Numbered from the stretch's first letter, positions 34,629 through 60,873 are shown. The stretch is 64,000 nt of DNA from Verrucomicrobiales bacterium (GCA_027490985.1 JAIXXC010000093.1:4293-68292), one strand, 5' to 3'. Notes: generated from the letters alone by a model not told the origin. Made by a program: numbers and translations.

Positions 34629-34656
34629 CCCTGGCAATCCCCTTCCGACGCACCCC

Positions 34657-39201: not shown

Positions 39202-40905
<1,704 letters not shown>

Positions 40906-42366: not shown

Positions 42367-42386
42367 GATATCGAAACCGGGTGAAC

Positions 42387-42415
42387 TTGACGGGGTCGCC
42401 GCGTGGGTGTAAATA
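42387..42415 (+). promoter_or_regulatory. candidate promoter in the AT-richer stretch upstream of brnT
   Basis: TTGACG (42387..42392), a 17-nt spacer, then TAAATA (42410..42415). It overlaps or abuts the inverted repeat TGTAA-N11-TTACA (about 42408..42428), which could be an operator. It lies about 55 nt upstream of the brnT ATG. Confidence 0.35.
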
Positions 42416-42471
42416 CAAAGTAGTTACATTGAATGCGCATCGGCCATACGCAGATGGATTGGATGGACTGA

Positions 42472-42759: not shown

Positions 42760-42765
42760 CCGGAA

Positions 42766-42916
42766 CGATTCAGTTGGATCGGTCGCGCTGGCTGCGTCTT
42801 CTTCCGCAAGAGCTTCGTTGTTCGCTCGTTACGGGCCTTCCATCGGCCCGCGCCTCGCTCTCGCCTCGTCTTGCGAAAGAATCCGCCACGCCATCCCTTG
42901 CCTCCCAACTGAATCG
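42766..42916. repeat. 12-bp perfect inverted repeat pair inside the brnT-brnA spacer
   Basis: CGATTCAGTTGG (42766..42777) and CCAACTGAATCG (42905..42916) are exact reverse complements 127 nt apart. They bracket most of the unusually long 201-nt toxin-antitoxin spacer. Confidence 0.5.
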
Positions 42917-42960
42917 GTCCGGCCGAGCCCGCCCGGTCGCCCTTTTCTTGGCCAGAGTCC

Positions 42961-43242
42961 ATGAATCTCCAGACCATCCAGTCGTGGGACGATGTCCCGC
43001 TCTTCGACAGCGAGCAGGCGGAGGCCGACTTCTGGGCCGAGAACCAGATCGATCTCCGCTTGATGGAGCTCTCGGCCACCGCCGGTTCCGAGCAGTCCGA
43101 ATCGGTGACCATCACCCTGCGGATGGATCCCCGGATGCTCAGTCGGATCAAGCGTCTGGCCCGTTCCCGGTTCCTCAACTACCAGAGCATGATCAAACAA
43201 TGGTTGAGCGAGCGCATGGAAAAGGAATTGAAGGACCGGTGA
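42961..43242 (+). CDS. brnA: BrnA-family antitoxin (CopG/RHH-like)
   Basis: 93-aa ORF. DSEQAEADFWAENQID ... VTITLRMDPRMLSRIKRLARSRFLNYQSMIKQWLSERMEKEL matches the BrnA pattern (seeEe.kFW..hd ... isiRl....l..lK.lA...g.pYQsLIK.wL.Er...E). Confidence 0.8.
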   Translation: MNLQTIQSWDDVPLFDSEQAEADFWAENQIDLRLMELSATAGSEQSESVTITLRMDPRMLSRIKRLARSRFLNYQSMIKQWLSERMEKELKDR

Positions 43243-43276
43243 TCCTTCGGGAAAGTCACCTCTCCCGTGTGAAGCC

Positions 43277-44062
43277 ATGAGATCCTGCAGTCCAACCTTT
43301 CCGCGTCCGCCGGCCCCGACCCGGCGGGTGGCTGCGTTCACACTGCTCGAACTGCTGGTGGTGATGTCCATCATCGGCATCCTGGCCGGCATGGTCGTGG
43401 GCCTCGCACCGGCGGCGGCGACCAAGATGAAGGAGGCCCGGGTGCGTACCGAGCTCCAGCAGTTGGTGACTCTCATCGAGGCCTACAAGGCCCGCTTCGG
43501 CGTGTATCCGCCCGACGGCGTGAGCCGCATCGCGGTGGCGGGTCAGGGATTCCAGACCGTGCCGAATCCGGCCTTGAGCCCGCTCTTCTACGAGCTGTCC
43601 GGGGTGTACCTGACCAATGCGTCCAGCGTCGACGGCTACTTCATTCCCCGCGCCGATGCCGACGATGGCGACGGGATCCGTTCGGGCGAATTGCAGACCT
43701 GGTTCGGCCGCGAGGGAATCCTCAACGCCAAGCCCTACGAGTTGCGCAACCGGCTCTTCATCAGCGATTTCAAGGAAAGCCAATACGCCGAGGTGTTCCG
43801 CAACCGGACCGATGCCGGGTACGCCGACATCGAGGTACTGGCGGTGGGTTACTCCTCCGATGCCTCCGGCAAGCGGGTCAACGGATTGCCCTGGCCCAAC
43901 AACCGGACCGACCACCCCGTTCCCTCCAACAAGGGGTTGAACCCCTGGCGCTACGTTTCCACCAATCCGACCAACAACCCCGGTGGCTTCGACCTGTGGG
44001 CCGAGATCCCCGTGGGCCGCGACCGCGTGAAGATCATCGGCAATTGGAAGGAATCCAACTAG
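43277..44062 (+). CDS. pseudopilin / type IV pilin-like protein (GspG-like, long)
   Basis: 261-aa ORF with a class III signal (RRVAA|FTLLELLVVMSIIGILAGMVVG) that has Glu at +5. The C-terminus is GspG-like (FDLWAEIPVGRDRVKIIGNW). It starts 34 nt after brnA. Confidence 0.85.
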   Translation: MRSCSPTFPRPPAPTRRVAAFTLLELLVVMSIIGILAGMVVGLAPAAATKMKEARVRTELQQLVTLIEAYKARFGVYPPDGVSRIAVAGQGFQTVPNPALSPLFYELSGVYLTNASSVDGYFIPRADADDGDGIRSGELQTWFGREGILNAKPYELRNRLFISDFKESQYAEVFRNRTDAGYADIEVLAVGYSSDASGKRVNGLPWPNNRTDHPVPSNKGLNPWRYVSTNPTNNPGGFDLWAEIPVGRDRVKIIGNWKESN

Positions 44063-44112
44063 TGGCCCCCCTTTCCCACCTTCCCCTCGTTTTGACCCGC
44101 GACAGAGAACCC

Positions 44113-44892
44113 ATGAAGACCCGAACGACCGCCCAACGCCGGAGCGCCTTCACGCTCATCGAACTCCTCGTCGTCATCGCCATCATCGGCATCCTTGCGG
44201 CCATGCTGCTGCCGGCCATCGCCTCGGCGACCACCAAGGCCAAGTCGGCCAAGGCCAAGGTCGAGGTCACAGGCATCGTGGGCGCGATCAATTCGTACCA
44301 GGCCGACTACTCTCGATTGCCGGCCACCAAGCGGACCCGCGACGCGCACGGTCTGCCCACCCGACCGGCCACCGCGCCCGACTGGATCTTCGGCAATGCC
44401 AACACGCCCGATGCCAAGGGCGTGCTGCCCACCCCCACCGTCGCCACCAAGATCGGCTACCAGCAGGTGCGTGATCAGGGCAACAGCGGCCGCGACGCCG
44501 ACAACTCCGAGGTGATGGCCATCCTCACGGCGCAGACCGTGGCCGATGTCCAGGGCGGCACCGCCGATGCGGTCAACCTCAACAACAACCAGAATCCCAA
44601 GCGCACGGTGTACCTGGCCGCCAAGGCGGTGGGCCGCAACCAGCCCAACGGCGTCGACGACCTCGGCGTCTACCGCGACCCGTGGGGTCATCCCTACATC
44701 GTCATCCTCGATCTCGACTACGACAGCCGCGTGCTGAGCCCCTTCCCGCTGGTGGCCCCGGGCCGTCCGGCCCAGGCCCGCTTCATTCCGGGCAATGCGC
44801 TGGTGATGTCGCTCGGTCCGGACGGCAAGGCCGATTTCACCGCCGATCAGGATCACCCGAACAACCGCGACAACATCTACAGCTGGAAGTAA
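44113..44892 (+). CDS. gspG: GspG-like major pseudopilin
   Basis: Internal ATG (MKTRTTAQRRSA|FTLIELLVVIAIIGILAAMLLPA) of ORF 43996..44892, giving 259 aa. It has the GspG-like segments AKVEVTGIVGAINSYQADYSRLP and LVMSLGPDGKADF...DNIYSW. Confidence 0.85.
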   Translation: MKTRTTAQRRSAFTLIELLVVIAIIGILAAMLLPAIASATTKAKSAKAKVEVTGIVGAINSYQADYSRLPATKRTRDAHGLPTRPATAPDWIFGNANTPDAKGVLPTPTVATKIGYQQVRDQGNSGRDADNSEVMAILTAQTVADVQGGTADAVNLNNNQNPKRTVYLAAKAVGRNQPNGVDDLGVYRDPWGHPYIVILDLDYDSRVLSPFPLVAPGRPAQARFIPGNALVMSLGPDGKADFTADQDHPNNRDNIYSWK

Positions 44893-46782: not shown

Positions 46783-47907
46783 ATGAACCCCCACTTTGTT
46801 CAGGCGGGCACCGCGATGCGCCGTCGTCCGCGCCGCACGGGCGGGTTCTCGTTGCTGGAGTTGATGATCGCCGTGGGCTTGCTCACGGTCATCATCATCG
46901 CGCTGTATGCGATGTTCGACCAGACCCAGAAGGCCTTCCGCCAGAGCCTGAACCAGGCCGATCTTTCCGAGGGCGGGCGTTCGGCACTCGACCTGATGGT
47001 CCGCAACCTGGAGCGGGCCGCCTCCCCGCAGGTCGACGATGCGTTGCACCTGGTGCTGCGACCGGCCAGTGCCAACGGCTATGAGCTGGTGTTCGCCGGC
47101 GAGGCCACCGAGGCCAACCGCACCCAACCCCTGCGCTTCGACGAGCTGTTCTTCACCTATCCGGCGGGGGGCGGCCGATGGCATGTGGCCGGTCTCTTCA
47201 TCGGCACCCTCGATGCCGGTCCGGTCACCAGTGAACCGGTGCCCGGATTGGGCTCGCTGTACCTGTACGACGAGGCCCTGCCCAATTCGAATCTGGTGCA
47301 GGTGCTCGACGGTCAGGGGCGCCTCGGGGTCTCGGCCGCGGGCCTGATCTCCCCGCCGCCCTACCGCCTCAGCGGTACGCCCGCGCTGCGCACCAACCTC
47401 ATCACCGGCCGCGTGTGGATTCCCGCCTATCCGGCCGGTGAAACCAAGGAGGCCCGCCGCGATGCGGTCAAGCTCTTGGAGGGCGTGTTGCAATGCCGCA
47501 TCACCGCCTTCGATGCCGATGGCCGTCCGTTCGACGGCAATCACCCGGTCTTGTCGGATGTGACATTCCCCCGGGTCGGAGTGAACACCAATTCACCCCG
47601 GCACTATCCGCTCACCCCGAGCGCCTGGCTGTCTCAGGCCACCAACATCATGGGCGCCGTCTCCCGGCCGCTGCCCATCGAGGTGATCAACGTCAACCCC
47701 GACACCGCCCAGGTCAGCGCCCTCTTCCGCGGGGCCAATCTCCCGGCGTCCATCGAGATCGAGATCACCCTCCTGGATGGCAAGCAATTGGACCAGTTCC
47801 GTGCATTGCCCGACAACGTCCAAACCCGCAACCGGTGGCTGGCGAACAATGCCGGCGCCCTCCAGACCCTCCGCCAGCGGGTCGTCCTCCGTACCGCGCC
47901 CCAATGA
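46783..47907 (+). CDS. minor pseudopilin (GspJ/PulJ-like)
   Basis: Internal ATG (MNPHFVQAGTAMRRRPRRTGG|FSLLELMIAVGLLTVIIIALYAMF) of ORF 46663..47907, giving 374 aa. The helix after the TM segment is PulJ-like. Confidence 0.7.
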   Translation: MNPHFVQAGTAMRRRPRRTGGFSLLELMIAVGLLTVIIIALYAMFDQTQKAFRQSLNQADLSEGGRSALDLMVRNLERAASPQVDDALHLVLRPASANGYELVFAGEATEANRTQPLRFDELFFTYPAGGGRWHVAGLFIGTLDAGPVTSEPVPGLGSLYLYDEALPNSNLVQVLDGQGRLGVSAAGLISPPPYRLSGTPALRTNLITGRVWIPAYPAGETKEARRDAVKLLEGVLQCRITAFDADGRPFDGNHPVLSDVTFPRVGVNTNSPRHYPLTPSAWLSQATNIMGAVSRPLPIEVINVNPDTAQVSALFRGANLPASIEIEITLLDGKQLDQFRALPDNVQTRNRWLANNAGALQTLRQRVVLRTAPQ

Positions 47908-50900
47908 AACGCCTTTCTCCCCAATCCAGCCGGCGCGGCGTGGCGCTGGTCATCACCCTGATCATGCTCTCGGTGGTGACGATCACCGCCGTGTCGTTCC
48001 TGATGGTCGCCCGTCGCGAGCGGGCCGCCGTGGCCGCCGCCGGTGAGCAGGCCGATGCCCGCATCGCCGCCGATGCCGCGCTCAATCGCGCCCGGGCCCG
48101 CATCCTGGCGCAGATCGCCTCCTCCGGCCTCCGGGAAGCCCCGACGCTGCTGGTCTCAACCAACTTCATCGCCCCGTCGTACACCCCGGGTCTTTCGGTC
48201 GCCGGTCAGGCTCTGCCGCTGGGCACGGCCCAGTCCAATCGGTGGTATTCGGCCCTGGCCAACGTGTCCTACCTGTACCAGGGCCGCTCCTTCGATCTCA
48301 ACAACACCGCCGAGATCCTCGAATACCGGCGGATGCTGGCCAACCTCTACTACGATCCGCGCGTCCCCGTGGTCGCGCGCACAGGCCGGTTGGATACCCG
48401 CGCCGATTCCTTCGAAGACCGCTTCTATCTGGATCTGAATCGCAACGGTCGCTTCGACACCAACGGGTACGTCCTTCAGCGCACTGTCACAGGTCAGGCC
48501 ATCGGTACCAATCGGGTCTGGCATGTCGGCGACCCCGAATGGATCGGTGTTCTGGCCGATCCCGATCGTCCGCACTCCGGCAACAACCGCTTCCTCTACC
48601 GCATCGCCTATCTGGTGGTTCCGGCCGATCAGACCGTCGATCTCAATTACGCCCACAATCAGGCCCGCAATCCCGATGACACCTCCGCCAGCCGGTTCTT
48701 CCGCAACCAGGGTGTGGCTCCGTGGGAACTCAATCTGGCGGGTCTGTTCCGCGACCTGAACACCAACCTCTGGCAGACCTACGCCTATTCCACCAATGGG
48801 GCCAACACCGGTCTGACCTTCGATCATGCCCTCAACCTGTGGGCCAACCGCCGCGTGGCGACGGTCACCGGGCGGGCCACGGCCCAGGATATCCTCACCC
48901 AGGATTCCCGGCCCCAGTTGGGCTCGGCCGGAGACTCGACCGCCGCCTCCCGGGTGATGCCGGTGAACGGCGTCGACGATCTGTCCGATGGCCCCCTCGT
49001 TTTGAGTCTGGCCCAGGTGCGCAATCCCGGCCTGCTGAACGACGGTGACAACGTCACCCGTCGTTGGTCGGGCGGCGATGTCTCCAATCCCTACCTCACC
49101 CCGTTCTCGCTGCTCAGCGATCCGACCCTGCTCCCGCTGGGGGTCAACCAGACGATCTGGACCAACCTCGACACCCGTCGCAATGCCTTCGCCGGTCAAT
49201 CGGTCTCTCCGATCCAGGCCTCCAATGCCACCTACAATGCCTACACCTTCTACCGCTTGCTCGGGTCGGTGGGCACCGACAGTTCCGACGGTCGTATCGA
49301 GGTGGGTGTGGATCTGGCCAACCGCTACTATCGCCGGGCCAAGCTCAACCTGAACTATCAGGTGCTCGATCCCGAGGGATCCCAATCGTACAGCGCCAAC
49401 GTGGTCACCACCAACGGGGCCTCGGGCTCGGCGGCCCGTGCGACGGCATTGGTTCCCTGGGTCGCCCGCACCTGGGTCTCGTTGGCGGGCGATCGACTGC
49501 TTCGCAAGGAGTTCTCCAACGGCTTGCCCGAGTTGAGCAATTTCAACTTCTACGATCCGTCCAACCCGAGCACCAAACTGTCGGTGCCCAAGGCGAAGGA
49601 GCCGGCCGCTCATGGCGTGGCCATCGCCGGAAGCTATTGGGTGACCAACGCCGTCGGGTCCCGGGCTCAACGGACTTCGGTTTCCCTCACCAACCACACC
49701 TGGTCGGCCAAGTTGCACCGCTTGCTCCAGTTGGCTGCGAATATCCACGAGGTGCGCACGAACCTCGTCGGGGGTCTCAATGCCGAACCGTTCCCGCCGC
49801 ATGTCTTTCGCCCCACCTTCTATCGCGAAGAGCAGGACGACCCGCGCAACCCGGGCAAGAAGCTGTCTGTCGTCCGCTTGGCCGGGTTGGAAGAAGTGAC
49901 CAATGCCGTCACCCAGGTGCTCAACACCGCCTGGACCAACTGGATGGATTTCGAGAACCCCATCGATGTGGCCAACCTGAGCATCGATCCGTCGGTGCCC
50001 ACCCGGACCAATGTCTTCGGCATCCCGTACGTGGTCGGCACCAAGCAGAACCAGACCGGTCCCACGGCACTGGGTCTGCCCAAGTTCAACGAGGCCTTCT
50101 GGCAAACCCGGGTGCGCACCGGGCGTCGTCTGCTCCTCGAGCGCCAGCCCAACGGGGCTGTGCGTCCCACCAACGAAACCACCCTCAGCGCCCTGGGCGT
50201 GGTGAAGTACGGCCAGTACACCTTCCAAGTCATCAACACCGCCGCCGTCGAGGGGTGGAACTCCTACCTGCAGGCGTTCCCGGTCAACCGACCGCTGCGC
50301 CTCATCGCCACCAACTGGACCGAGATCAGCCTCTACGACGCCAACCTGGCGACCGTGGCCCAGCCGTTGGGTCAGCCCCTCTTCATTCCTCAGCCGCTCA
50401 ATCCGAACTCTCCGTTGAGCGTCCAGAATCCGATGGTCTTCAACCGGACCAACTATGCCGTGCAAGTGGGCAATGTGGTCCGCATCGGCAATGGCAATAC
50501 AGGCTACAAGGCCCGTTGGGACGCCCAGGAATACATTCCGGCGCTCAACACCAACACGGCCTTCGGTCTGGTGTACAACCCGGTGTTGGGGCGCATCTTC
50601 CCCCTCACCGAGACCAACAACCCGCTGGCCATGTTCCCCATGCCGGGGACGCGTCCTGACCGCTTGCTGCCCAACCTGACCCTGGCGGTCACCAATCGGT
50701 TGGTCTTTGCCATCGTCGACGACAGTTTCGTGCCGCCGCGCCTGCTCGACTTCGTGAACCTCAAGAGCGGGACTCTGGAGAGCAATCTGCTCGAGAACCT
50801 GATGTACACGGCCGATGGGTTCATTCCGGGCAATCCGGGCGACGCCGGGATCGATCAGGGTTTCGACAACACCGGAGGCGCTCTGGGTGGCGGCGCCGGT

Positions 50901-52562
50901 TCGGTGCGCCCGCTGCGCATGGCCGAGTTGTGGCAGACCAACTTCTTGGCCGGCCGGGTGATCCCCTCGGGCTTCGAGAACCAGTTCGCCGCCTCGTTGA
51001 ACCCGCTGCGAGTGCTCCAGTTCTGGGAGGCCCCCGTGGTGCCCGGTGTGGTGACCACGGGAGATCCTCGCGTGGATGCCAGTCTCGGGTTGAGGGCCTT
51101 CTTGTACGGCATCAATTCGGTGCCGCGCAGCTCGCAAGTGGTGGCTCGGCGCGAACTCGATCGACTGCTGGCCTCGGGTGGCAACCTCAATGGCAACCGG
51201 ATCCAGGTGGGTTTCAATCCGGTGGGCGAGGTCCATCTCACCGACCGCCGGATGGCCAATGATCCCTTCGTTCATTACACGAAGGAAGACCTGCAGCCCG
51301 GAGGCGTGGTATACACCCATCCCGAGGGCTACTGGAAGTTCTACGCCGACGTCTTTCATGACCGCCGCCCCGAGATGTTCCAGGGGCTCCAATTGGATCC
51401 GAGCATTTCCGAGAGCCGCATCGCCGAGCCGAGTGGCGATTATCTGGTCACCACCGTGAACCGCACCAATCGGGTGGCCGCTCCGTTCAAGTTCATCAAC
51501 GCCTACGCGCCGTGGGCGAGCAGTGCCAATCTCGGCACGGGCATTTCCTCGCCGGCCTTGGCAGTGGACATGGCCTACAAGGATCCGCTGGTGACCAACA
51601 GCGCCGCCTGGTCGTTCCCGACCCCCACCAACGCGTTGGCCTCCATCGGACAGCTGGGCCGCGTTCATCGCGGCACTCCGTGGCAGACGGTGTACCTCAA
51701 GAGTCCGGTGGCCAACCTCGAGCCTGACGACCAGGTCCACATCGCCGACCGCCATCATTGGAAATGGTGGTCGGGCAGCTACGGCACGCATCCCACCAAC
51801 GACTGGGCGTTGCTCGACACCTTCTCCACGGCGCTCACCGAGAACGCCGGTCATGGGCAGATCGGGGTCAACCAGACCAACCTGCCGGCCTGGTCGGCGA
51901 TTCTGTCCGGGGTTCCGGTGTTGCGCCGACTCTCTGGCGATGCCAACACGCTGGTCGCCACGGTGCTGGATCCGGCCGGGGGCAATGGCGCGTCGTTCGT
52001 CCAGAAGATCGTCGCGGGCTACACCAACAACAACGGGCAGTTCCGCCACGGCGTCGTCTCGGGCTTCGTCCACACCAACGGGTGGCCGGGCGATCCGAAC
52101 ATCACCGTCACCGATGGCAACGGGAGGGCGTTCGTCGTTCCGATGCCCCGCCGCTGGCTGCCGCGCTTCCAGTCGGTCGGAGAGATCTGCTCGGTGGAGA
52201 CCTTGTCGGTGGGTTCGCCCTTGTTGGAAAATGTGGAGTACGACGAAACCAACCCGGGCCGCACGTTCCGTCCGGTCCCCGACGAGGTGGTCGAGCGCAT
52301 CCCGCAGCAGATCCTCTCGTTGCTCAAGGCCGAGGAGCCTCGGTACGTGATCTACTCGTGGGCCCAGACCCTGAAGCCGGCGCCCGGAGCGGTGGTCACG
52401 GCCCCGGGTCCGTTCTTCGGGTTGTCCACCAACTACGTTGTCACCGGCGAATTCGCCACCAAGACCGTCCTGCGTTTCGAGGGAGCCCTCTCCACCAACG
52501 CCCCGGTCACCCAAACCCTGCGCACGGTGGTGGAAGACCACCGCGTGCTGACCACGGACTGA
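47904..52562 (+). CDS. giant GspK-like pseudopilin (1552 aa)
   Basis: Internal ATG of ORF 47493..52562 that overlaps the previous stop (ATGA). The N-terminus MKRLSPQSSRRG|VALVITLIMLSVVTITAVSFLMVARRE is the GspK/PilX-type class III signal without Glu+5. About 1500 further residues have no family I can name. Confidence 0.75.
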   Translation: MKRLSPQSSRRGVALVITLIMLSVVTITAVSFLMVARRERAAVAAAGEQADARIAADAALNRARARILAQIASSGLREAPTLLVSTNFIAPSYTPGLSVAGQALPLGTAQSNRWYSALANVSYLYQGRSFDLNNTAEILEYRRMLANLYYDPRVPVVARTGRLDTRADSFEDRFYLDLNRNGRFDTNGYVLQRTVTGQAIGTNRVWHVGDPEWIGVLADPDRPHSGNNRFLYRIAYLVVPADQTVDLNYAHNQARNPDDTSASRFFRNQGVAPWELNLAGLFRDLNTNLWQTYAYSTNGANTGLTFDHALNLWANRRVATVTGRATAQDILTQDSRPQLGSAGDSTAASRVMPVNGVDDLSDGPLVLSLAQVRNPGLLNDGDNVTRRWSGGDVSNPYLTPFSLLSDPTLLPLGVNQTIWTNLDTRRNAFAGQSVSPIQASNATYNAYTFYRLLGSVGTDSSDGRIEVGVDLANRYYRRAKLNLNYQVLDPEGSQSYSANVVTTNGASGSAARATALVPWVARTWVSLAGDRLLRKEFSNGLPELSNFNFYDPSNPSTKLSVPKAKEPAAHGVAIAGSYWVTNAVGSRAQRTSVSLTNHTWSAKLHRLLQLAANIHEVRTNLVGGLNAEPFPPHVFRPTFYREEQDDPRNPGKKLSVVRLAGLEEVTNAVTQVLNTAWTNWMDFENPIDVANLSIDPSVPTRTNVFGIPYVVGTKQNQTGPTALGLPKFNEAFWQTRVRTGRRLLLERQPNGAVRPTNETTLSALGVVKYGQYTFQVINTAAVEGWNSYLQAFPVNRPLRLIATNWTEISLYDANLATVAQPLGQPLFIPQPLNPNSPLSVQNPMVFNRTNYAVQVGNVVRIGNGNTGYKARWDAQEYIPALNTNTAFGLVYNPVLGRIFPLTETNNPLAMFPMPGTRPDRLLPNLTLAVTNRLVFAIVDDSFVPPRLLDFVNLKSGTLESNLLENLMYTADGFIPGNPGDAGIDQGFDNTGGALGGGAGSVRPLRMAELWQTNFLAGRVIPSGFENQFAASLNPLRVLQFWEAPVVPGVVTTGDPRVDASLGLRAFLYGINSVPRSSQVVARRELDRLLASGGNLNGNRIQVGFNPVGEVHLTDRRMANDPFVHYTKEDLQPGGVVYTHPEGYWKFYADVFHDRRPEMFQGLQLDPSISESRIAEPSGDYLVTTVNRTNRVAAPFKFINAYAPWASSANLGTGISSPALAVDMAYKDPLVTNSAAWSFPTPTNALASIGQLGRVHRGTPWQTVYLKSPVANLEPDDQVHIADRHHWKWWSGSYGTHPTNDWALLDTFSTALTENAGHGQIGVNQTNLPAWSAILSGVPVLRRLSGDANTLVATVLDPAGGNGASFVQKIVAGYTNNNGQFRHGVVSGFVHTNGWPGDPNITVTDGNGRAFVVPMPRRWLPRFQSVGEICSVETLSVGSPLLENVEYDETNPGRTFRPVPDEVVERIPQQILSLLKAEEPRYVIYSWAQTLKPAPGAVVTAPGPFFGLSTNYVVTGEFATKTVLRFEGALSTNAPVTQTLRTVVEDHRVLTTD

Positions 52563-52584: not shown

Positions 52585-55500
52585 ATGCGCCCGTCTCGAA
52601 GCCTGATTGTTGCCATCGCCCTGGCGGTGGGTTCCCTGGGGCTGTACCGCTGGGTACAGCCGCCGGCCGCGAATCCCGCCTCCTCGGTCACCGGGCTGAC
52701 CACGACGCCCGTCGACCCGGCCTCGGCCATCGGTCGTTCTCTGGCCGTCTCGGCCCATGTGGCGGCCAAGCGCCTGGCGGTCCGCCCGTTGGAGGCCGGC
52801 CGGCGTCCGGCTCCCCAGGATGCCGAATTTCCGTGGCGCGCGCGCAACACCGCCAAGACGGTGGACCAGTTGCGCTCCGACCCGCGGGCCCTGGTGCTGC
52901 GCAATGCCCTGATCGACACCCGCACGGGTGAACCGCTGCCGTTGCCGGAGGCGCTGGTGGCCGGTCCGGAGCCCGGATTCCACATCGTCCAATTCTCCCA
53001 CGAGCCCGACGCGGAGTCCCGCCGCCGTCTCGAAGAACAACGCCTGCAGGTGGTCTCGTACCTGCCGGTGAACGCCTTCCTGGTCCAGGGCTCCGACGAG
53101 TCGATCGAGCGATTGGCTCTCGATGCCGACATCGCCTCGGTGTCGCCCTGGCATCCGGCCTTCAAGCTGGAGCCCGAGTTGCTGACCCGGGCCATCGACG
53201 GTCGGCCCCTGGAGGCTGGCGATCGGCTGATGCTTTCTCTGACCGATCCCGAGGCCTTCCCGCGCTTGGAATCCCTCGGCGTGCGCGAGGTGTCCCGGCA
53301 ACGCAGCCCGTTCGGAACCCTGGTCACCGTGGACGTGCCGCCCGACGCGCTGGTTTCCCTGGCCCGGTCGCCCGAGGTGCATCTGATCGAGAAGGCCCAT
53401 CGCCGCGAACTCCTCAACGACCGCTCCGCTTACCAGCTGGGCAGCGCCACCGACGTCACCAACACGGCGTCGTATCGCGGGCTCACCGGCAGCAATGTGG
53501 TGGTCAACATCAACGACTCGGGCATCGATTGGACCCACCCCGACCTCACCACCAATCGGGTCTTCACGGTGGGCTCGCAGACCAACCTCCTCACCGACAC
53601 CGACGGTCACGGCACCCACGTGGCCGGCACCATCGCCGGCAGCGGCGCCCGTTCGCTCGAGATCCAGGGGCCGGCCCAGGGTTCGGTGACCAATGCGCAG
53701 CTCCGCGGACTCGCGCCCAACGCCAAGCTCTTCATCCTGCCGATCGACCTTCAGACCGGGCCGACCATCTCCGACGCCTTCCTCCAGGAGCAGGCGGCGA
53801 TGACCAACGCCCTCATCTCGAACAACAGCTGGGGCTACACCGGGGCCTACGAATACAACTCCATCTCGGCGAGCTACGACGCCGCCTCACGGGATGCGCT
53901 GCCCGAGACCACCGGCGAGCAACCCGTGCTCTTCGTCTTCGCCGCCGGCAACTCCGGCCAGGGCGGCAACAACGGCGTCGGCGGACTCCGTGGGTCGGTC
54001 ACCGTTCCGGGCAACGCCAAGAACGTCATCACCGTCGGAGCGCTCGAGAGCAAGCGCAACCTCACCAACGCGGTGGTCCTCGACGATGAGGGGCGTGTCA
54101 TCTGGGCCGGCGGCAAGCAGTTCCGTGAACCGGGCACCAACGCCGAATTGACCACCAATCTCGTCCTGCGGGCGGCCACCGACACCGACACCGAGGTGGC
54201 CAACTTCTCCAGCCGGGGCAACGTGGGCATCGGCATCGAGGGCAGCTACGGGCGCTTCAAGCCCGATGTGGTGGCTCCGGGTTCCCAGATCCTCTCCGCG
54301 CGTTCGGCCCAGTGGAAACTGGAGGACGAATACGACACCAATTCGGTGCAGTACGCCGTGTTCGACGATCTCAATCGCCCTGTGGCCCCGTGGTATCGGT
54401 TCCTCTCCGGCACGAGCATGGCCGCCCCGGCCGTGTCCGGCCTGTTGGCCCAGATCCAGGAGTTCTGGCATCGCCCGGGCATCACCTTGCCGAGGTACAT
54501 CGAGGCGGCGGCCTACAAGGCATTGGTCATCAACAGCGCCCGCCCTTCGGCCGACGTGTACGCCCCCGATTTCCGCTCCGTCATGAACTACACGGGATGG
54601 GGTCAACCGAGCCTGCCCCGCGCCCTCGACAGCGGTGTGCGCCTCACCCGGGCCGATGGCGCCATCGTGGAATTGGCTGGGTTCGCCGGCGAACTCGCCA
54701 CCGGGGCCAGTCAATCGTTGCGCCTCAAGCTCACGACCAATGAAGTCGCCGCCACCGGTGCCTTCCACTTCACGCTGGTGTGGACCGATCCTCCCGGCAA
54801 TCCCGCCGCGGGCCTCAAGCTGGTCAATGATCTGGACCTCATCGTCTCCAACACCGTCACCGGCGAGGTTTTCGTCGGCAATGATCTGGCCCGAACCGGC
54901 TACACCGCGGGACGTCCGGGAACCAACGCGTTCGAGGTGGTCGAAGCGGGTGTGACCAATTCGGTCTTCGACTCGGTCAACAATGTCGAACGCGTGGTGC
55001 TCGAGCCGCCGCTGGCCCCGGAATATGTCATCCACGTGGTGGCCCGCCGGGTCAACGTCAACGCCCTGGCCTCCCGCGAGTTCCAGAATCTCCAGAACCG
55101 CACCAACATCGTCCAAGACTTCGTGGTGGCCCTCTCGTCCGATGCGGCCTCCGACAACGCCATCGTGGCGACCGCCGAGTATGTCACCGCGTCGTCCGGC
55201 GGGGGCTTCGGCGTGGTCCAGCCGCCGCCGATCTCCGTGGTGGCCACCAACGGCATCCCCGTGTCGGCCTCCCGCGTCGGCGCCCAGTCTCCTCTGGTCG
55301 GGGGCGCGGCCGGTCAGTCGGCGCAATGGCATTTCTTCGTCTTCACCAACCTCTTCAATGCGGAGGCGGCGGCGGCCACGGGCTTGACCAACGGCCAGTA
55401 TGTCGAGTTCGTCATCTCGTCGGCGGCCAATCTGGCGCGGCCCCGCGGCCCCGGCGGAACCGGGTCACGGCTGCGGGATCGCGTGCTGGGCCCCGATCTC

Positions 55501-58500
55501 GACCTGTACATGTCCACCGATCCGGGGCTCACCAACCTCCAGGCGTCGGCTCTGGCCTCGGCCTACCGGTCCACCCTCCAAGGCTTCGACGAACGCATCG
55601 AGATCACCAACGCCCCGGCCAATGGCGAGGTGTATTACATCGGCGTGAAGGCCGAGGATCAGCAGGCCGGTGAATTCGAGTTGGTGGTGCGCAGCAGCGA
55701 CCAGCCCTTCCATGTCCTGGGAGCCAATGGCTACAGCCTGCTCATGACCCCGATCGGCGGCGGGCGGGCGATTCCCGACGGAAGCCCGGACGCTCCCGGA
55801 GTCGTCCGGTATTTCGGCACGGGGCCCTCGGGCATCACCCGGAACGTGACCTTCACCCAGTCGCTCCTCCACGACAACTTCTTCGACCTGCAGGGCACTC
55901 TGATCCACGCCGGATACGGTGTGACCATCAACAATCGCCGATCCATCCGCGACTACGGCACCGGCCTCACCCAGGTCTCGGGTCCGGTGATGGGTCTGTA
56001 CGATGACATCCCGGGCCTGAGGTTCCCGGGGGGGCAGCCGACCGATGGCCCGAGCTCCACGCTCCTCGACTTCTCCGGTCTCGGAAGCACCGGTTCCTGG
56101 AACTACCTGCTGCAGGACGACGTGCTGGGTGGCTCCGGTTCCTTGACCTCGGTGCAGCTCCAGGTGCAGCCGCAGGTGTTGCCCGCCTTCGATCAGCGGG
56201 TCTTCGAGAATATCTGTCTGGGGCCGCAGGCCTACGACTTCCGGCTGCGGATCGTGCCGCCGGATGCCAGCCGGCTGATCATCGAGGTGACCAACATGGT
56301 CCCGGCCAACTTGCCCCTCGAGGTGTACATCCGCCGCGAGGCCTTTCCCGATCCCGACAATCCGGAGGTCAATGATCGCGTGGCCACCCTCCTGGGGCCG
56401 GGCGTGATCAGCATTTCCGTGCGCGATGTCCCCGCCCTCCAGGCCGGCACCTACTTCGTGCTCTTCCACAACCCCTCCGGCGTGGAGCTGTGCTTCGATG
56501 TGGCCATCTATGGCGAGCGCAATCTCTCGTCGAAATTCACCCGCACCATCGAGGGGCGTTCCGCCTCGCTGGCCGATGTCGCCCGCACCGTGGCCTCGGT
56601 GCAGGTCGACGACGCCCGTCCGGTGTCCGATGTGCAGGTGGGGGTCCGGGCCGAGCACGCCCGCGCGTCCGATCTGGCGCTCCGGTTGGTCACCCCCGGC
56701 GGCGCGAGTGCGCTGCTCTTCGAAAATCGCGGCCTCACCAGCACCAATGGCCTGGGTGGCGTCTTGGTGACCAGCAACTACCAGCACGTGGCCTTGTCGC
56801 TCGACCGGGCCGGCGGCGTCGCCCGCATCTACTTCAATGGCGAGGTGGTGGCCGAACAGGCCGTTCAACTCTCGCCCAGCAATACGCCCACCTCGTTCCA
56901 TCTGGGATCGCTGGGGTCGGCCAACCTGCCGGGCAGCCCGATCCAGCTGGATGACTTCGGCCTCTGGCGCCGTTCGTTGCGCGAGGCGGAGATCCGTCAG
57001 ATCTACGATGAGGGCACCTTCGGCCGGGCCAAGGCGACCAACCTGGCCACGGCCGGATTGGCGGCGCTGTGGCCGCTGGACCGCTTCGGGGTGGATACCA
57101 TCGCCGGTCAGACCATCAGCAGCGTGGGCACCACGGTGGCCGGTCAGATGAACTTCGGAATGCGCCAGACGGGGACCGGCACCGGCGCCATCTCCACCGA
57201 CTCCCGCATCCGGGACATCGGCAACCTTCCGGGATTGACCCTCGAGGGTTGGATCAAGCCCGTCTCGGGCAATGAGCGGCTCATCGTCGGCGGCTGGTAT
57301 GACGCCGCCAACAAACGCACCGGTCCCGCCTTGTTCGTGGGTCAGGCCGCGCCCCTGGGCAACGGACCGGGTTCCCTGAGTGCCATCTTCCAGGATGCCA
57401 ATGGCAATCGGGTCGTCCTGAGCACCCCTTCAGGTCTCTTTCCGACCGGTGGTGTGGTCACCAACCGCGCGTTCGCGGTCTTCGGCGACAGCACCAATGG
57501 CGTCTACACCCCGATCAAGTTCGCCCCGACGCCCTACCTGAGCCGCATCGTGCCCCAGGTCCTCTACTCCAACGACTGGGAGACCCTCACTCCGGGCGAG
57601 TATGTCGCCGGTACCAACAGCCTCGAAGGGTGGGTCGTGCTCACCAACCGGGTGTCGATTCTGGCCGGGGGCGCCGAGGGTCAGGTGCTCGACCTGCGCA
57701 ATGCCGCGGTGGAGCGTCAATTCGACTTGAACATCGGTCAGGCCTACCGGCTGGCCTTCACCAGTCGCAAGTCGCCCACGGCCAAGACCGCGGTCAATGC
57801 CCAGGTCTGGGTCGATGGGTCCAGCGTCCTGCGGGTCGACAGCACGCCGGGTTGGGTCACCAACACGGCCTCCTTCGTGGCCCGTTCGTCACGCTCGGCC
57901 GTGGGCTTCGTCTCCACGTCGCCGCCCGCGTCGAACACCAATTTCCCGGCCGGCCTCGAGATCGGGCAGGTGTGGCTCGACCAGGATGGGTCGCCGCTGG
58001 TGTACCAGCCCGAAGAGCCCCTGCGCCCGTTGATGGGACAGCCCGGCACCGGGCTCTGGCAGTTGCAGACCACCGATGCCCGGGGTGGCGAATCGGGGCT
58101 GCTGCTCGACTGGCAGTTGCGCTTCACGTTCATGCCGACCAACCCGCCGACCTTCCGGTTGACCAACGGCATCGCCTTCACCACCAACATCGTGGGTGCG
58201 GATATCCGCTATTTCGTGGTCGATGTGCCGTTGGAGGCCGAACGGGCCACCAACACCCTCATCAACGTCTCCGGCGGCCCCTTGACGATGCTGTACAGCG
58301 CTTCGGGTCTGCCCGATGCCACCGAATCGGACACGGTCACCGTGGTCTCGGGTCTGGCGGCCGGCCAGGCGTTCGCCGGCACGCTCGACTCCAACCTCCC
58401 GCCGCTCCTGCCTCGCGGTCAGCGCTATTACCTGGCGGTCCGGGGAGCCGGAGGCACGTCGTCCAACCAGTTCTCGTTGCAGGCCGATTTCGGAGTGCGC

Positions 58501-60873
58501 ATCACCCCGCTGACCCACCGCATCGCCATCCGGGCCACCAACACCGCACCGATTCTGCAGGAGTACTACTCGTACCAGGTGCCGACCAGCAACGTGCTCG
58601 GAGTCACCTTCACCGTCACGGGCCAGACCCGCGATGTGGATCTGTACGCGGTGCGGGCTCCGAAGCTCCCGGGCGTGGGTCAATACGATTACGCCTCGGT
58701 GACACCGGATGGCACGAATGAGACCCTGGTCATCCACCTCGACAGTCAACCGGTCGCCCTGGCTCCGGGACTGTGGTACCTCGCGGTCACCAATACCTCG
58801 GCCATTCCCGGGGCCGCTTACAGCATCATGGTCGTCGAGCAGCGCGGCCGCATCCAGGAGTTGAAGCCGGGTCAATCCGTCACCGCCAGCCATACCGGCA
58901 CCGACGACGACTACTACTACGTCACCCTGCCCGACGATGCGTCGGCTCTGCGGGTGCGCACGCGCGGAGCGGCTCAAGACCTGATCCTCAGTTCCCGCAG
59001 CCGGCTCCCGGTGCCGACCCCCACCAGCTTCGAATACCGGAGCGACACGGTCGGCTCGGGCGATGAGGACCTGCTCGTGACCACCAACTCCACTCCCGTC
59101 GCCCTGGCGGGTGGACGGTGGTATTTCGCCGTGACCAGCGTCGATGGCTTGCCCGGGCCCTACACGATCTCGGCCGACCTGCGTCTCAAGGACGCCGTGT
59201 TCGAGACGTTGACCAACGAGTTGTGGTTCGAGGCCCAGGCCACCAACGGTCCGGTGGATCTCGACTTCGTCTTCCGCAATCCGGGCGAGGTGAGTGGCAT
59301 CACCTTCGAGCTCGACCAGTTGACCGGCGAGGCCGACCTGGCGGTCAGCCCCGACGAGCCTCTGCCCTTGTCGGCGGTGTCCTTCGCCAATGCCCAGCCG
59401 GGCACCCAGTCCGAGCGGGTCACGGTGCTGGCCGGTCGTGATCTGCCTTCGCTGGGGCGCGATTGGTATCTCCGCGTCCGCCTGCCCTCGACGGGGCCCG
59501 TGCGCTTCCGCATCCGGGCCAGTCTCAATCGTCCGCCGGTGTGGACCGATGTGGGCACGCGCCGGGTGACCGAGGGGCTCCGCCTGTCTCTCACGCTCAA
59601 GGCGACCGATCCCGATCCCTATGGGCAGACGGTGACCTATGGTCTGGTGGCAGGTCCGGCGGGCCTCACGGTGAGCACCAACGGTGTGCTGACGTGGCAA
59701 CCCACCGAGGCGCAGGGTCCGAGCACCAATCGGGTGATCGTCTTCGCCACCGACGGGCTGATGTCGGCGACCAACGAGTTCACCATCCTGGTCCGTGAGT
59801 CGAACCAGCCGCCGGTATGGACCAACCCGGGAACGCGGAAGATCACCGAGGGTTTGCTGGCGTCGTTCCAACTGGTGGCCACGGATGCCGACCTGCCGGT
59901 GCAGTCGCTGGTCTTCGGATTGGTGAAGGGTCCGGACGGGCTCACCGTGAGCACCAACGGTCTGGTCAATTGGCAGCCCACCGAGGCGCAGGGGCCGAGC
60001 ACCAATCGGGTGACCGTGACCGTGAGCGATGGTGGGGTGACGGTGCCGCAGGACTTCGACATCATCGTGCGCGAATCCAACCGGTTGCCCGTGTGGGTGA
60101 CGCTCATCACCACGCGTCGGGTGGCCGAAGGTTCGCTGCTGTCCTTCAATGTCCAGGCCACCGACAGCGATCTTCCGGCACAGCCACTGACCTATCGTCT
60201 GCTCAATGGCCCGACCGGTCTGGTTGTCACGACCAACGGCCTGGTGTCCTGGACCCCGACCGAGGCCCAGGGCCCCAGCACCAATCGGGTCCGCATCGGA
60301 GTCGGTGACGGCGTGGGCAACATTTCCCAGGAGTTCGACATCATCGTGGCCGAGCGCAATCAGCCGCCGGTGTGGACCAACCCGGGCACGCGCCGGGTGA
60401 CCGAGGGTCTGCAGTTGACCTTCACCCTGAAGGCCACCGATGCCGACCTGCCGGTCCAGACGCTGAGTTATTCGCTGGTCCAGGGTCCTGCCGGACTGAA
60501 GGTGTCGACCAATGGTGTGCTGTCCTGGAAGCCGACCGCGGCCCAGGGGCCCAGCACCAACCGTGTCCAGGTGAGTGTGAGCGACGGCGTCGTCTCGGTG
60601 GCGCAGGAGTTCAACATCGTGGTCCAGGAGCCGCCGGCGGTCGAGGCCCGCCTGACCCTGGTGCTCACGTCGCCGAACGGATTCGAGATCGTCTTCGTGG
60701 GTCCGTTTGGCGGTCAGTACATCCTGCAACAGAGCGCTTCACTCGACGGGCCTTGGGTGGCCGTGCCGGGAGTCCAGAAACCCCTCACCGCGGCGGGCTT
60801 GAACGAGCCTCTCAAGGTGGCCTTGCCGGCCACGGCCTCGCCTGAGGCCTTCTACCGCTTCACCAAGCCTTGA
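52585..60873 (+). CDS. giant secreted multidomain subtilisin (S8) - P-domain - LamG - PPC - cadherin-like protein (2762 aa)
   Basis: It starts 22 nt after the GspK-like gene and has an N-terminal signal/anchor and two I9-like propeptide modules. The S8 triad motifs are NINDSGIDWTHPDL (Asp), DGHGTHVAGTIAG (His), NNSWG (Asn) and SGTSMAAPAVSGLLAQ (Ser). Further modules are proprotein-convertase P-domain-like segments (VQVGVRAEHARASDLALRLVTPGG; GLWQLQTTDARGGESGLLLDWQLRF), LamG-like modules, several PPC-like modules and 4 tandem cadherin-like repeats. Confidence 0.9.
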   Translation: MRPSRSLIVAIALAVGSLGLYRWVQPPAANPASSVTGLTTTPVDPASAIGRSLAVSAHVAAKRLAVRPLEAGRRPAPQDAEFPWRARNTAKTVDQLRSDPRALVLRNALIDTRTGEPLPLPEALVAGPEPGFHIVQFSHEPDAESRRRLEEQRLQVVSYLPVNAFLVQGSDESIERLALDADIASVSPWHPAFKLEPELLTRAIDGRPLEAGDRLMLSLTDPEAFPRLESLGVREVSRQRSPFGTLVTVDVPPDALVSLARSPEVHLIEKAHRRELLNDRSAYQLGSATDVTNTASYRGLTGSNVVVNINDSGIDWTHPDLTTNRVFTVGSQTNLLTDTDGHGTHVAGTIAGSGARSLEIQGPAQGSVTNAQLRGLAPNAKLFILPIDLQTGPTISDAFLQEQAAMTNALISNNSWGYTGAYEYNSISASYDAASRDALPETTGEQPVLFVFAAGNSGQGGNNGVGGLRGSVTVPGNAKNVITVGALESKRNLTNAVVLDDEGRVIWAGGKQFREPGTNAELTTNLVLRAATDTDTEVANFSSRGNVGIGIEGSYGRFKPDVVAPGSQILSARSAQWKLEDEYDTNSVQYAVFDDLNRPVAPWYRFLSGTSMAAPAVSGLLAQIQEFWHRPGITLPRYIEAAAYKALVINSARPSADVYAPDFRSVMNYTGWGQPSLPRALDSGVRLTRADGAIVELAGFAGELATGASQSLRLKLTTNEVAATGAFHFTLVWTDPPGNPAAGLKLVNDLDLIVSNTVTGEVFVGNDLARTGYTAGRPGTNAFEVVEAGVTNSVFDSVNNVERVVLEPPLAPEYVIHVVARRVNVNALASREFQNLQNRTNIVQDFVVALSSDAASDNAIVATAEYVTASSGGGFGVVQPPPISVVATNGIPVSASRVGAQSPLVGGAAGQSAQWHFFVFTNLFNAEAAAATGLTNGQYVEFVISSAANLARPRGPGGTGSRLRDRVLGPDLDLYMSTDPGLTNLQASALASAYRSTLQGFDERIEITNAPANGEVYYIGVKAEDQQAGEFELVVRSSDQPFHVLGANGYSLLMTPIGGGRAIPDGSPDAPGVVRYFGTGPSGITRNVTFTQSLLHDNFFDLQGTLIHAGYGVTINNRRSIRDYGTGLTQVSGPVMGLYDDIPGLRFPGGQPTDGPSSTLLDFSGLGSTGSWNYLLQDDVLGGSGSLTSVQLQVQPQVLPAFDQRVFENICLGPQAYDFRLRIVPPDASRLIIEVTNMVPANLPLEVYIRREAFPDPDNPEVNDRVATLLGPGVISISVRDVPALQAGTYFVLFHNPSGVELCFDVAIYGERNLSSKFTRTIEGRSASLADVARTVASVQVDDARPVSDVQVGVRAEHARASDLALRLVTPGGASALLFENRGLTSTNGLGGVLVTSNYQHVALSLDRAGGVARIYFNGEVVAEQAVQLSPSNTPTSFHLGSLGSANLPGSPIQLDDFGLWRRSLREAEIRQIYDEGTFGRAKATNLATAGLAALWPLDRFGVDTIAGQTISSVGTTVAGQMNFGMRQTGTGTGAISTDSRIRDIGNLPGLTLEGWIKPVSGNERLIVGGWYDAANKRTGPALFVGQAAPLGNGPGSLSAIFQDANGNRVVLSTPSGLFPTGGVVTNRAFAVFGDSTNGVYTPIKFAPTPYLSRIVPQVLYSNDWETLTPGEYVAGTNSLEGWVVLTNRVSILAGGAEGQVLDLRNAAVERQFDLNIGQAYRLAFTSRKSPTAKTAVNAQVWVDGSSVLRVDSTPGWVTNTASFVARSSRSAVGFVSTSPPASNTNFPAGLEIGQVWLDQDGSPLVYQPEEPLRPLMGQPGTGLWQLQTTDARGGESGLLLDWQLRFTFMPTNPPTFRLTNGIAFTTNIVGADIRYFVVDVPLEAERATNTLINVSGGPLTMLYSASGLPDATESDTVTVVSGLAAGQAFAGTLDSNLPPLLPRGQRYYLAVRGAGGTSSNQFSLQADFGVRITPLTHRIAIRATNTAPILQEYYSYQVPTSNVLGVTFTVTGQTRDVDLYAVRAPKLPGVGQYDYASVTPDGTNETLVIHLDSQPVALAPGLWYLAVTNTSAIPGAAYSIMVVEQRGRIQELKPGQSVTASHTGTDDDYYYVTLPDDASALRVRTRGAAQDLILSSRSRLPVPTPTSFEYRSDTVGSGDEDLLVTTNSTPVALAGGRWYFAVTSVDGLPGPYTISADLRLKDAVFETLTNELWFEAQATNGPVDLDFVFRNPGEVSGITFELDQLTGEADLAVSPDEPLPLSAVSFANAQPGTQSERVTVLAGRDLPSLGRDWYLRVRLPSTGPVRFRIRASLNRPPVWTDVGTRRVTEGLRLSLTLKATDPDPYGQTVTYGLVAGPAGLTVSTNGVLTWQPTEAQGPSTNRVIVFATDGLMSATNEFTILVRESNQPPVWTNPGTRKITEGLLASFQLVATDADLPVQSLVFGLVKGPDGLTVSTNGLVNWQPTEAQGPSTNRVTVTVSDGGVTVPQDFDIIVRESNRLPVWVTLITTRRVAEGSLLSFNVQATDSDLPAQPLTYRLLNGPTGLVVTTNGLVSWTPTEAQGPSTNRVRIGVGDGVGNISQEFDIIVAERNQPPVWTNPGTRRVTEGLQLTFTLKATDADLPVQTLSYSLVQGPAGLKVSTNGVLSWKPTAAQGPSTNRVQVSVSDGVVSVAQEFNIVVQEPPAVEARLTLVLTSPNGFEIVFVGPFGGQYILQQSASLDGPWVAVPGVQKPLTAAGLNEPLKVALPATASPEAFYRFTKP
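59527..60630 (+). repeat. four tandem ~276-nt coding repeats (cadherin-like / He_PIG-type Ig domains) inside the giant S8 gene
   Basis: Repeat units start at 59527, 59803, 60079 and 60358. Each encodes N(Q/R)PPVWTxxGTRxxTEGxxLxFxLxATDxDLPxQxLxYxLVxGPxGLxVSTNGxLxWxPTEAQGPSTNRVxVxVxDG...FxIxV. Long near-identical nucleotide stretches occur between units (e.g. CCCACCGAGGCGCAGGG.CCGAGCACCAATCGGGTGA). Confidence 0.9.

Follow-up and report, generated by a model that had tools for sequence, protein, structure and literature searches.

An oversized GspK/PilX-class pilin-like protein in a conserved type IVa pilus-like operon of Verrucomicrobiota

Introduction

How does a gene in the position of that for GspK, a tip subunit of ~325 amino acids (aa), come to encode a protein of 1,552 aa? 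This question is raised by a stretch of DNA of 64,000 nucleotides from a Verrucomicrobiales bacterium (GCA_027490985.1, JAIXXC010000093.1:4293-68292; 66% G+C), called the window hereafter, which carries a pilus-like operon with such a gene, the target, as the last of its series of pilin-like genes. Tip complexes set when type IV filaments begin polymerising and what the filaments bind. The original prediction, made from the sequence of the window, took the target for a GspK/PilX-type tip pseudopilin that combines in one chain an anchor and a body of the size of PilY1, with ~1,200 extra residues, and held that such a filament tip would be built in a new way. We looked at the start of the gene, its family, its operon, its predicted structure and the coevolution of its residues. 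Our answer, to which we give a probability of about 0.7, is that the target is the apical minor pilin, in the PilK/PilX/GspK position, of a type IVa pilus-like filament in Verrucomicrobiota.

Results

The start of the gene and its N-terminal signal

The start codon of the target (ATG, 47904) and the stop codon of the J-position pilin gene before it (TGA) overlap as ATGA, an arrangement shared by 50 of 59 related loci, even at 28% protein identity. Translation from this codon agrees with the gene as originally described: 1,552 aa, an N-terminus with RRG ahead of the putative cleavage site (MKRLSPQSSRRG, followed after the site by VALVITLIMLSVVTITAVSFLMV) and, at +5, an Ile in place of Glu. A longer in-frame open reading frame (ORF) starting at 47493 (1,689 aa) was rejected; its extension lies inside the J-position gene, in another frame, and is absent from homologues. 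All homologues start 6-25 residues ahead of the G/[VI]ALVITL motif (the slash marks the putative cleavage site). Since the homologue starts and the conserved ATGA both point to 47904, and since 47493-47903 lies within the upstream gene, we take this start as real and, therefore, the N-terminal signal as a real part of the protein; a true start far downstream, which would leave the signal outside the protein, is contradicted by the same observations.

The signal is conserved throughout the family. In a weighted set of 276 family sequences, Gly12, at -1 of the putative prepilin peptidase site, is present in 90% and has basic residues or Gln before it, and the motif Gly(-1)-[VI]-A-L-V-I-T-L is conserved at 78-97% per position, with Ile, Val or Thr at +5. 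Cleavage after Gly12 by a prepilin peptidase is thus predicted from the motif. Every representative examined has G/[VI]ALVITL at its N-terminus together with R-x-V-V-E-S-[FY]-N-V-L-P-P at its C-terminus. In an AlphaFold2 (AF2) model of aa 1-1200, residues 12-74 form one continuous helix of 63 residues, as is typical of pilins.

The class of the protein

The target and 32 relatives were compared with curated profiles. In Pfam, 0 families matched the target protein (E ≤ 0.1). The NCBIfam models NF037980 (T2SS_GspK; 14.1 bits for a cutoff of 130, residues 11-68) and TIGR02600 ("Verru_Chthon cassette protein A"; 11.8 bits for a cutoff of 332.3, residues 12-67, of a 1,296-position model) matched its N-terminus only. 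Among the relatives, TIGR02600 was matched by 30 of the 32 (best E 3.9e-10), NF037980 by 24 (best E 1.2e-5; 25 bits for the top relative) and Pfam PilX_N (PF14341) by six (best E 8.6e-4); Pfam T2SSK matched none of them. These matches always cover the first ~56-108 residues and always stay far below the curated cutoffs, distant representatives included. When 14 relatives were scanned singly with TIGR02600, 13 reached 13.9-31.2 bits, at the N-terminus only, and P0070 gave no match. Alignment by hhalign of the family profile with GspK of Escherichia coli K-12 was limited to aa 8-62, and PDB sequence and profile searches gave 0 matches. The beta-propeller of Neisseria_PilC / IPR008707 had no Pfam match in the target (E ≤ 0.1) or in the 32 relatives (E ≤ 0.01). 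Judged from these profiles, the N-terminus is of the GspK/PilX/PilK class and the remaining ~1,480 residues are in no described family.

Closer assignments were rejected. The target is not a GspK in the strict sense (no globular GspK or alpha-domain was detected, the score is below the cutoff and the alignment covers the helix only), nor a PilX-PilY1 fusion (no PilY1 domain or propeller by Pfam or Foldseek), nor a true TIGR02600 member, for which score and coverage fail in distant representatives too.

A conserved operon resembling that of a type IVa pilus

The operon order PilT, ATPase, PilC, pilin, G, H, I, J, K-like (the target's position) and S8 subtilase was recovered by tblastn in essentially all of 77 fetched loci with enough flanking sequence, and it persists at 28% identity. 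All five upstream pilins carry F-[TS]-[LM]-[LI]-E, that is, a Glu at +5, which the target lacks. The operon looks like that of a type IVa pilus rather than of a classical type II secretion system (T2SS), because it contains a PilT-type ATPase and two PilB-type ATPases.

We weighed this against a T2SS-like pseudopilus in place of a surface pilus, in which the oversized K protein would stay mostly periplasmic and would serve as a dedicated cradle or piston head, recognising the S8 subtilase and pushing it through a secretin. The order G-H-I-J-K is indeed the classical T2SS order, yet the conserved operon also encodes a PilT-type ATPase for retraction and a pair of PilB-type ATPases that carry MshEN domains, none of which a classical T2SS has. 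The G-like pilin exceeds the cutoff of Pfam T2SSG (PF08334; 23.6 for 21 bits) and reaches 54.8 bits, below the cutoff, with TIGR01710, whereas the pilins of the operon (260-374 aa) are far larger than pseudopilins. The subtilase has a signal-like N-terminal segment and lies next to the target in 62 of 63 loci, and a role in substrate loading has been attributed to the tip pseudopilins of T2SS (PMC12075869); the invariant surface motifs described below would also suit a conserved protein partner. Genes for GspC, GspL, GspM and GspD, however, were not found near the target among the scanned ORFs of the window. Taken together, we consider a secretion pseudopilus of this kind unlikely.

The pilins upstream of the target are themselves large. 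At 261, ~260, 304, 309 and ~374 aa, they have 1.5-2.5 times the usual size, and they resemble known pilin families through their N-terminal ~30-70 residues only. Since all pilins are oversized, the whole filament may be unusually thick or decorated. The three genes before the target match, in this order and with their N-termini only, the Verru_Chthon proteins D (TIGR02596; 45.2 for a cutoff of 70 bits), B (TIGR02598; 21.9 for 51.4) and C (TIGR02599; 22.6 for 256.5). The last of them, the J-position gene, also scores 19.2 bits with TIGR01711 (gspJ; cutoff 64.85), and is PulJ-like by its position and N-terminus only.

A large family found nearly exclusively in Verrucomicrobiota

A word-indexed search gave 1,178 matches, with full-length relatives of 1,350-1,590 aa, all annotated as "hypothetical" except one "Tfp pilus assembly protein PilX". 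A HMMER scan with aa 353-1552 extended the family to at least 1,008 clusters (50% identity) at E ≤ 1e-3, 496 of them at E ≤ 1e-30. Overall, full-length relatives have 1,167-1,590 aa, most clusters lying at 1,170-1,460 aa, and identity within the family is 28-40%. A scan of species-representative genomes found relatives in at least 575 genomes. Among 77 fetched loci, 75 are labelled Verrucomicrobiota (Limisphaerales, Pedosphaera and similar), one Vulcanimicrobiota and one just "bacterium". The Vulcanimicrobiota locus (L074, DATJRH010000015.1) bears the label Candidatus Aquilonibacter, and one protein match is labelled Candidatus Limnocylindria; both cases probably reflect errors of binning or labelling and not horizontal transfer. 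On these searches, the family is large, unnamed and uncurated, has no structural relative and belongs nearly entirely to Verrucomicrobiota.

Predicted structure

Two overlapping AF2 models were made, of aa 1-1200 and aa 353-1552. The first has a predicted local distance difference test score (pLDDT) of 68.8 and a predicted template modelling score (pTM) of 0.65, with aa 520-1170 at 80-92 and aa 80-520 at ~50; the second has a pLDDT of 74.7 and a pTM of 0.77, with the same core at 85-94 and the C-terminal 350 aa at 60-80. The confident core is a central beta-rich body. At the C-terminus, a helix (1460-1473) is followed by strands 1480-1492, 1511-1526 and 1540-1549. Foldseek searches of both models against PDB and of the second against BFVD gave nothing at E ≤ 1e-3; whole-chain queries of this kind can overlook single-domain matches. 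The best matches, to arrestin, leukocidin and ApaG-like beta-sandwiches, were insignificant (E ≥ 0.02, template modelling score ≤ 0.35), and GspK, XcpX, PilY1 and other pilus proteins were not among the matches.

Coevolution suggests an out-and-back chain

Coevolution was analysed by mean-field direct coupling analysis (DCA) with a reduced alphabet on 276 aligned family sequences, with an effective number (Neff) of 168. An analysis by mutual information with average product correction had been swamped by subfamily-marker positions, and it was discarded in favour of mean-field DCA. The top DCA couplings match the AF2 hairpins 1489-1515, 1519-1548, 731-780 and 641-660, with 799-940 also among those reproduced, and this recovery of modelled hairpins argues that the DCA signal is real. 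Residues 241 and 1482 form the pair with the second highest coupling overall (z = 16), and further couplings between the N- and C-terminal regions are 59-1485, 78-1481, 51-1515 and 27-1525. The block ~1458-1547 is the top long-range partner both of the helix aa 30-80 (first of 90 blocks) and of the strands aa 190-250 (first of 76 blocks), each time ~3 standard deviations over the median. When only residues separated by over 100 aa were considered, 18 of the top 50 couplings connected aa 81-520 with aa 1197-1552, where 8.9 were expected (p = 0.002), and in the same set couplings of aa 81-520 to the central body were depleted (5 for 12.8 expected).

These couplings suggest a chain that goes out and back: it would leave the pilin helix, build the distal body and return with its C-terminal sheet onto the N-terminal pilin module. 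Packing of the N- and C-terminal regions on each other would also explain why each half-model is poor where its partner is missing (aa 1-520 at ~50 in the one, aa 1200-1552 at 60-80 in the other). The evidence for this closure is indirect, moderately strong and not decisive.

Invariant motifs

The N-proximal beta region contains an EF-hand-like loop of nine residues, D177-x-N179-x-N181-G-x-x-[D/E]185, with conservation of 98% (D), 99% (N), 97% (N), 78% (G) and 99% (D/E). Its spacing resembles the EF-hand-like calcium loop D-x-[DN]-x-D-x-x-x-D of PilY1, which makes it a putative Ca2+ site. The most conserved module, and the one best matched by distant representatives, is aa ~1197-1552. It includes a motif at aa 1249-1266 in which G1249, G1252, H1255, R1256, G1257, W1260, Q1261 and K1266 are present in 100% of the 276 sequences, and many other invariant polar residues are concentrated in aa 1100-1330. 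Because such invariant polar motifs occur in a family of only 28-40% identity, the pattern points to catalysis or to a fixed interface with another protein and not to the variable, fast-evolving surface of a host adhesin.

A giant subtilase follows the target

The gene that starts 22 nt past the target stop encodes a subtilase of the S8 family. Of the 63 loci with at least 3 kb of downstream sequence, 62 have a subtilase ORF directly after the K-like gene, with homologues of 1,970-3,200 aa. Complete homologues differ in their preceding domains, yet ~45 of 50 share a short motif, [FY][FY]R[VIL]xx[VIL]P, at the extreme C-terminus. We infer that the subtilase is the most plausible conserved partner of the target body; it is possibly a tip partner like PilY1 or MshQ, or else a cargo of the system.

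From this pairing comes a second alternative, in which the subtilase would donate the final beta-strand of the tip in trans, as PilC/PilY1 and MshQ do, so that the protease would be displayed at the tip and the target would be a PilK analogue whose body serves as a docking platform. The strand-like C-terminal motif of the subtilase and the strict adjacency of the two genes fit it, and so does the precedent of MshQ, encoded downstream of pilIJK homologues and predicted to be a C-terminal donor (PMC13533445). On the other hand, the target has highly conserved C-terminal strands of its own that co-vary with its N-terminal module, which favours closure in cis, and the "...YR[VL]" ending may be general to C-terminal beta-sandwich domains of the phylum. 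We find donation in trans improbable.

That the target is not a filament subunit at all, its N-terminal helix serving as an ordinary signal anchor that tethers a large periplasmic or surface protein, encoded in a pilus operon, to the membrane, would agree with the weak N-terminal profile matches of the target itself (E 0.025-0.038, just ~56 residues) and with the lack of a pilin-fold match in Foldseek, but it is very improbable given the prepilin-type motif conserved over ~1,000 clusters, the much stronger family-wide matches to TIGR02600 and GspK, the position always after three minor pilins with Glu at +5 and with ATGA coupling, and the pilin-typical 63-residue helix.

Other features of the window

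The features of the locus are collected in Table 1. MshEN, found in both PilB-type ATPases, is known from MshE as a module that binds cyclic di-GMP. Between pilC and the first pilin gene lie two small ORFs, one BrnT-toxin-like (PF04365, 17.9 bits, below the cutoff) and the other of the CopG/BrnA antitoxin type (PF12441, 41.9 bits, above the cutoff). In 63 related loci the two occupy the same place, with identities of ~60-98% among the 40 best matches of each; the pilins, at 28-50% identity, are far less conserved. Because of this fixed position and of a conservation above that of the pilins, the two ORFs seem to belong to the pilus operon itself, perhaps with a regulatory role, and do not look like a mobile toxin-antitoxin pair. 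An ORF at 42381-43280 (299 aa) in the same gap was judged spurious, the two small conserved ORFs occupying this space.

Directly upstream of the operon (30954-36084, +) are a PSCyt2/PSD1 (DUF1549/DUF1553) protein of 1,224 aa and then a DUF1501 protein. This pair is typical of the Planctomycetes-Verrucomicrobia-Chlamydiae superphylum and is consistent with the Verrucomicrobiota origin of the window. Convergent housekeeping genes close the operon. An IF-2B-family protein is encoded at 60991-62133 (-; PF01008, 247.7 bits), and the ORF antisense to it at 60925-62202 (+), with an Arg/Gly-rich, junk-like translation and no family matches, is almost certainly an artefact of high G+C. An Rfam scan of the whole window gave no matches.

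Table 1. Coordinates of the features of the pilus-like operon, counted from the first letter of the window
Feature	Coordinates	Strand	Evidence
PilB-type ATPase with MshEN domain	36235-37956	+	Pfam T2SSE, MshEN
PilT-type ATPase	37990-39177	+	Pfam T2SSE
Second PilB/GspE-type ATPase with MshEN domain	39202-40905	+	Pfam T2SSE, MshEN
PilC/GspF platform protein	40952-42322	+	Pfam T2SSF
Two small ORFs, in the ~950 bp that separate pilC from the first pilin	42472-42759, 42961-43242	+	Pfam
Additional pilin-like gene, 261 aa	43277..44062	+	N_methyl PF07963; AAFTLLELLVV; syntenic
GspG-like pilin, candidate major subunit, ~260 aa from likely start	~44110..44892	+	N_methyl; T2SSG PF08334; TIGR01710
GspH-position minor pilin-like gene, 304 aa	44935..45849	+	N_methyl, weak GspH, Verru_Chthon D; syntenic
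GspI-position minor pilin-like gene, 309 aa	45849..46778	+	AAFTMIEIAL with Glu+5; weak Verru_Chthon B and HpsB N-terminal matches; syntenic
GspJ/PilW-position minor pilin-like gene, 374 aa from likely start 46783	46783..47907	+	N_methyl PF07963; GGFSLLELMIA with Glu+5; syntenic
Target gene, 1,552-aa PilK/GspK/PilX-class apical minor pilin-like protein	47904..52562	+	ORF, translation, full-length homologues, conserved ATGA
Leader peptide, aa 1-12 (MKRLSPQSSRRG), Gly at -1 of putative prepilin peptidase site	47904..47939	+	Gly12 conservation
Alpha-1 helix, aa 13-74 (VALVITLIML...), Ile replacing Glu at +5	47940..48125	+	AF2 helix, N-terminal profile matches, hhalign
EF-hand-like 9-residue loop, putative Ca2+ site, N-proximal beta region	48432..48458	+	Conservation
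Central beta-rich body, aa ~521-1196, strands of 12-20 residues and helical segment; confidently modelled distal part	49464..51491	+	AF2, both models
Invariant motif G-x-L-G-R-V-H-R-G-T-P-W-Q-T-x-Y-L-K, aa 1249-1266	51648..51701	+	Conservation
C-terminal helix and three-stranded sheet, aa 1460-1549, ending ...R-x-V-V-E-x-x-x-V-L	52281..52550	+	AF2, conservation, coevolution
S8 subtilase, 2,762 aa, Peptidase_S8, P-domain, LamG and Big_9 repeats	52585..60873	+	Pfam; starts 22 nt past target stop

Discussion

A proposed model of the filament tip

The apical minor pilin that we favour could act as follows. After Sec-dependent insertion into the membrane, the protein would be cut by the prepilin peptidase after Gly12, and its alpha-1 helix (aa 13-74) would bundle with the minor pilins of the H, I and J positions, as earlier work on such pilins suggests (PMC13533445). 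The resulting initiation complex, into which the target would be incorporated first, would end at the tip of the filament. The N-proximal region (aa ~80-520), with a small beta-sheet and the putative Ca2+ loop, and the C-terminal module (aa ~1197-1552) would pack beside the helix, the beta-rich middle (aa ~521-1196) would project distally, and the last three strands (aa 1480-1549) would come back to complete a pilin-type sheet in cis. The inserted excursion would then have ~1,240 residues and the tip body ~150 kDa. This scheme agrees with what is proposed for PilK homologues, which are invariably without Glu at +5 and apical; the final strand of the PilK-class sheet comes in trans from PilC/PilY1 and in cis in GspK and CpaL, and closure of the sheet licenses the recruitment of I and J and polymerisation (PMC13533445).

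Several points weigh against this interpretation. Foldseek shows no likeness of the globular part to GspK or to any pilin fold, for which the low pLDDT of the N-terminal 520 aa may be responsible. The predicted contact between the N- and C-terminal regions comes from a noisy coevolution signal (Neff ~168), and some of the coupled helix positions (aa 23-31) belong to the stretch of alpha-1 that usually sticks out of the globular domain. A secretin, PilMNOP, GspCLM and a prepilin peptidase were not found among the scanned ORFs of the window. Finally, a folded tip of ~165 kDa would have to pass an outer-membrane channel, a difficulty that PilY1 poses as well.

Comparison with known systems

GspK/XcpX shares with the target an N-terminus of the form [QR]-[RK]-G/[VIM]-A-L-[VL]-[IV] without Glu at +5, the last place in the G-H-I-J-K series and, probably, a pilin module that is interrupted by an insert and completed in cis by one or more C-terminal strands (PMC13533445). 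Similarity ends, however, at residue ~62, and the target has no T2SSK domain; the insert of GspK is an alpha-domain of ~180 aa, while that of the target has ~1,240 aa in a beta-rich unknown fold. The operon, with PilT and lacking the T2SS genes named above, also differs. Type IVa systems with PilX/PilK and PilY1/PilC have in common with the target system a pilin of the apical class without Glu at +5, PilB, PilT and PilC, and a comparable total tip mass; the body of the target is, however, part of the pilin polypeptide, whereas PilY1 is a separate non-pilin with a beta-propeller, undetected in the target. The class and position assigned by the original prediction thus stand (NF037980 in 24 of 32 relatives, PilX_N in six, hhalign over aa 8-62, G-, H-, I- and J-like genes before), but the label of a GspK/PilX-type tip pseudopilin has to be loosened, as there is neither a globular GspK domain nor a PilY1 domain and the PilT/PilB operon is not a classical T2SS. 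That the ~1,200 extra residues hold no nameable domain is borne out by Pfam, NCBIfam (matches at the N-terminus only), PDB and Foldseek.

A precedent is CpaL of the Caulobacter Tad (type IVc) pilus, a single chain with a minor-pilin-like module, a large middle and an extreme C-terminal strand that closes the sheet in cis (PMC13533445, PMC11870444); for the target, coevolution suggests such an out-and-back design too. CpaL, at ~600 aa with an adhesin of ~470 residues, belongs to another filament class, and no sequence similarity to the target was detected; the body of the target is ~2.5 times as large and extremely conserved. TIGR02600, Verru_Chthon A, resembles the target in being Verrucomicrobiota-specific and large and in having the same N-terminal helix, but members of the target family match it within their first ~56-70 residues only (11.8-31 bits, far from its cutoff), and the bodies are not detectably homologous. 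Our literature search found no paper on the Verru_Chthon cassette or on giant pilins in Verrucomicrobia, the cassette being a database entry only.

Modular type IV pilins, such as PilB and PilC of Streptococcus sanguinis, CofB of enterotoxigenic E. coli, ComZ of Thermus and KilL/M/N of Myxococcus, also carry a functional module on a pilin module at the tip (PMC8179133, PMC12075869). They are widespread, the largest in a 2021 InterPro survey having 860 residues (PMC8179133), and the Kil tips of Myxococcus bear extra domains (PMC12075869). Most of them have a C-terminally grafted module and keep Glu at +5; the target family has neither Glu at +5 nor a database signature for its module. With CpaL, the modular pilins and TIGR02600 as precedents, the claim that the tip is built in a wholly new way was an overstatement. 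Another comparison concerns MshQ of the Vibrio mannose-sensitive haemagglutinin pilus (~1,200 aa), encoded right after pilIJK homologues and predicted to join the tip by addition of its C-terminal strand (PMC13533445). The subtilase downstream of the target is in the equivalent slot; MshQ is, however, neither a pilin nor a protease, and at the target locus both the K-position and the downstream proteins are giant. The proposal that anchor and PilY1-sized body form one chain is therefore right as to the single polypeptide, but it has to make room for the separate 2,762-aa subtilase, maybe a partner of the PilY1/MshQ kind.

What the family may mean

The target family is best described as an uncharacterised modular tip pilin of the PilK/GspK class, notable for its size, its unknown fold, its extreme conservation and its obligatory subtilase neighbour. 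Folding of the PilK-class subunit, completed by the final strand in cis or from PilY1, has been proposed as the licensing signal (PMC13533445). If our interpretation is true, the family is an extreme case of closure in cis, in which ~1,240 residues would have to be made, exported and folded before the closing strands, and would thus offer a natural test of the licensing model. A bolder and doubtful extension is a retractile filament whose cap, a pilin of GspK topology with a ~1,240-residue insertion of a fold absent from PDB, docks the co-encoded subtilase of 2,000-3,200 aa, possibly via the C-terminal strand of the protease. Were it true, Limisphaerales/Pedosphaera-type lineages would have a protease-armed filament that extends and retracts, with which to forage on or attack polymeric or cellular targets. 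A model of the family could supplant "hypothetical protein" in thousands of annotations. Altogether, the invariant motifs and the pairing with a subtilase suggest a conserved biochemical role of the filament in an abundant, poorly cultured phylum of freshwater and soil.

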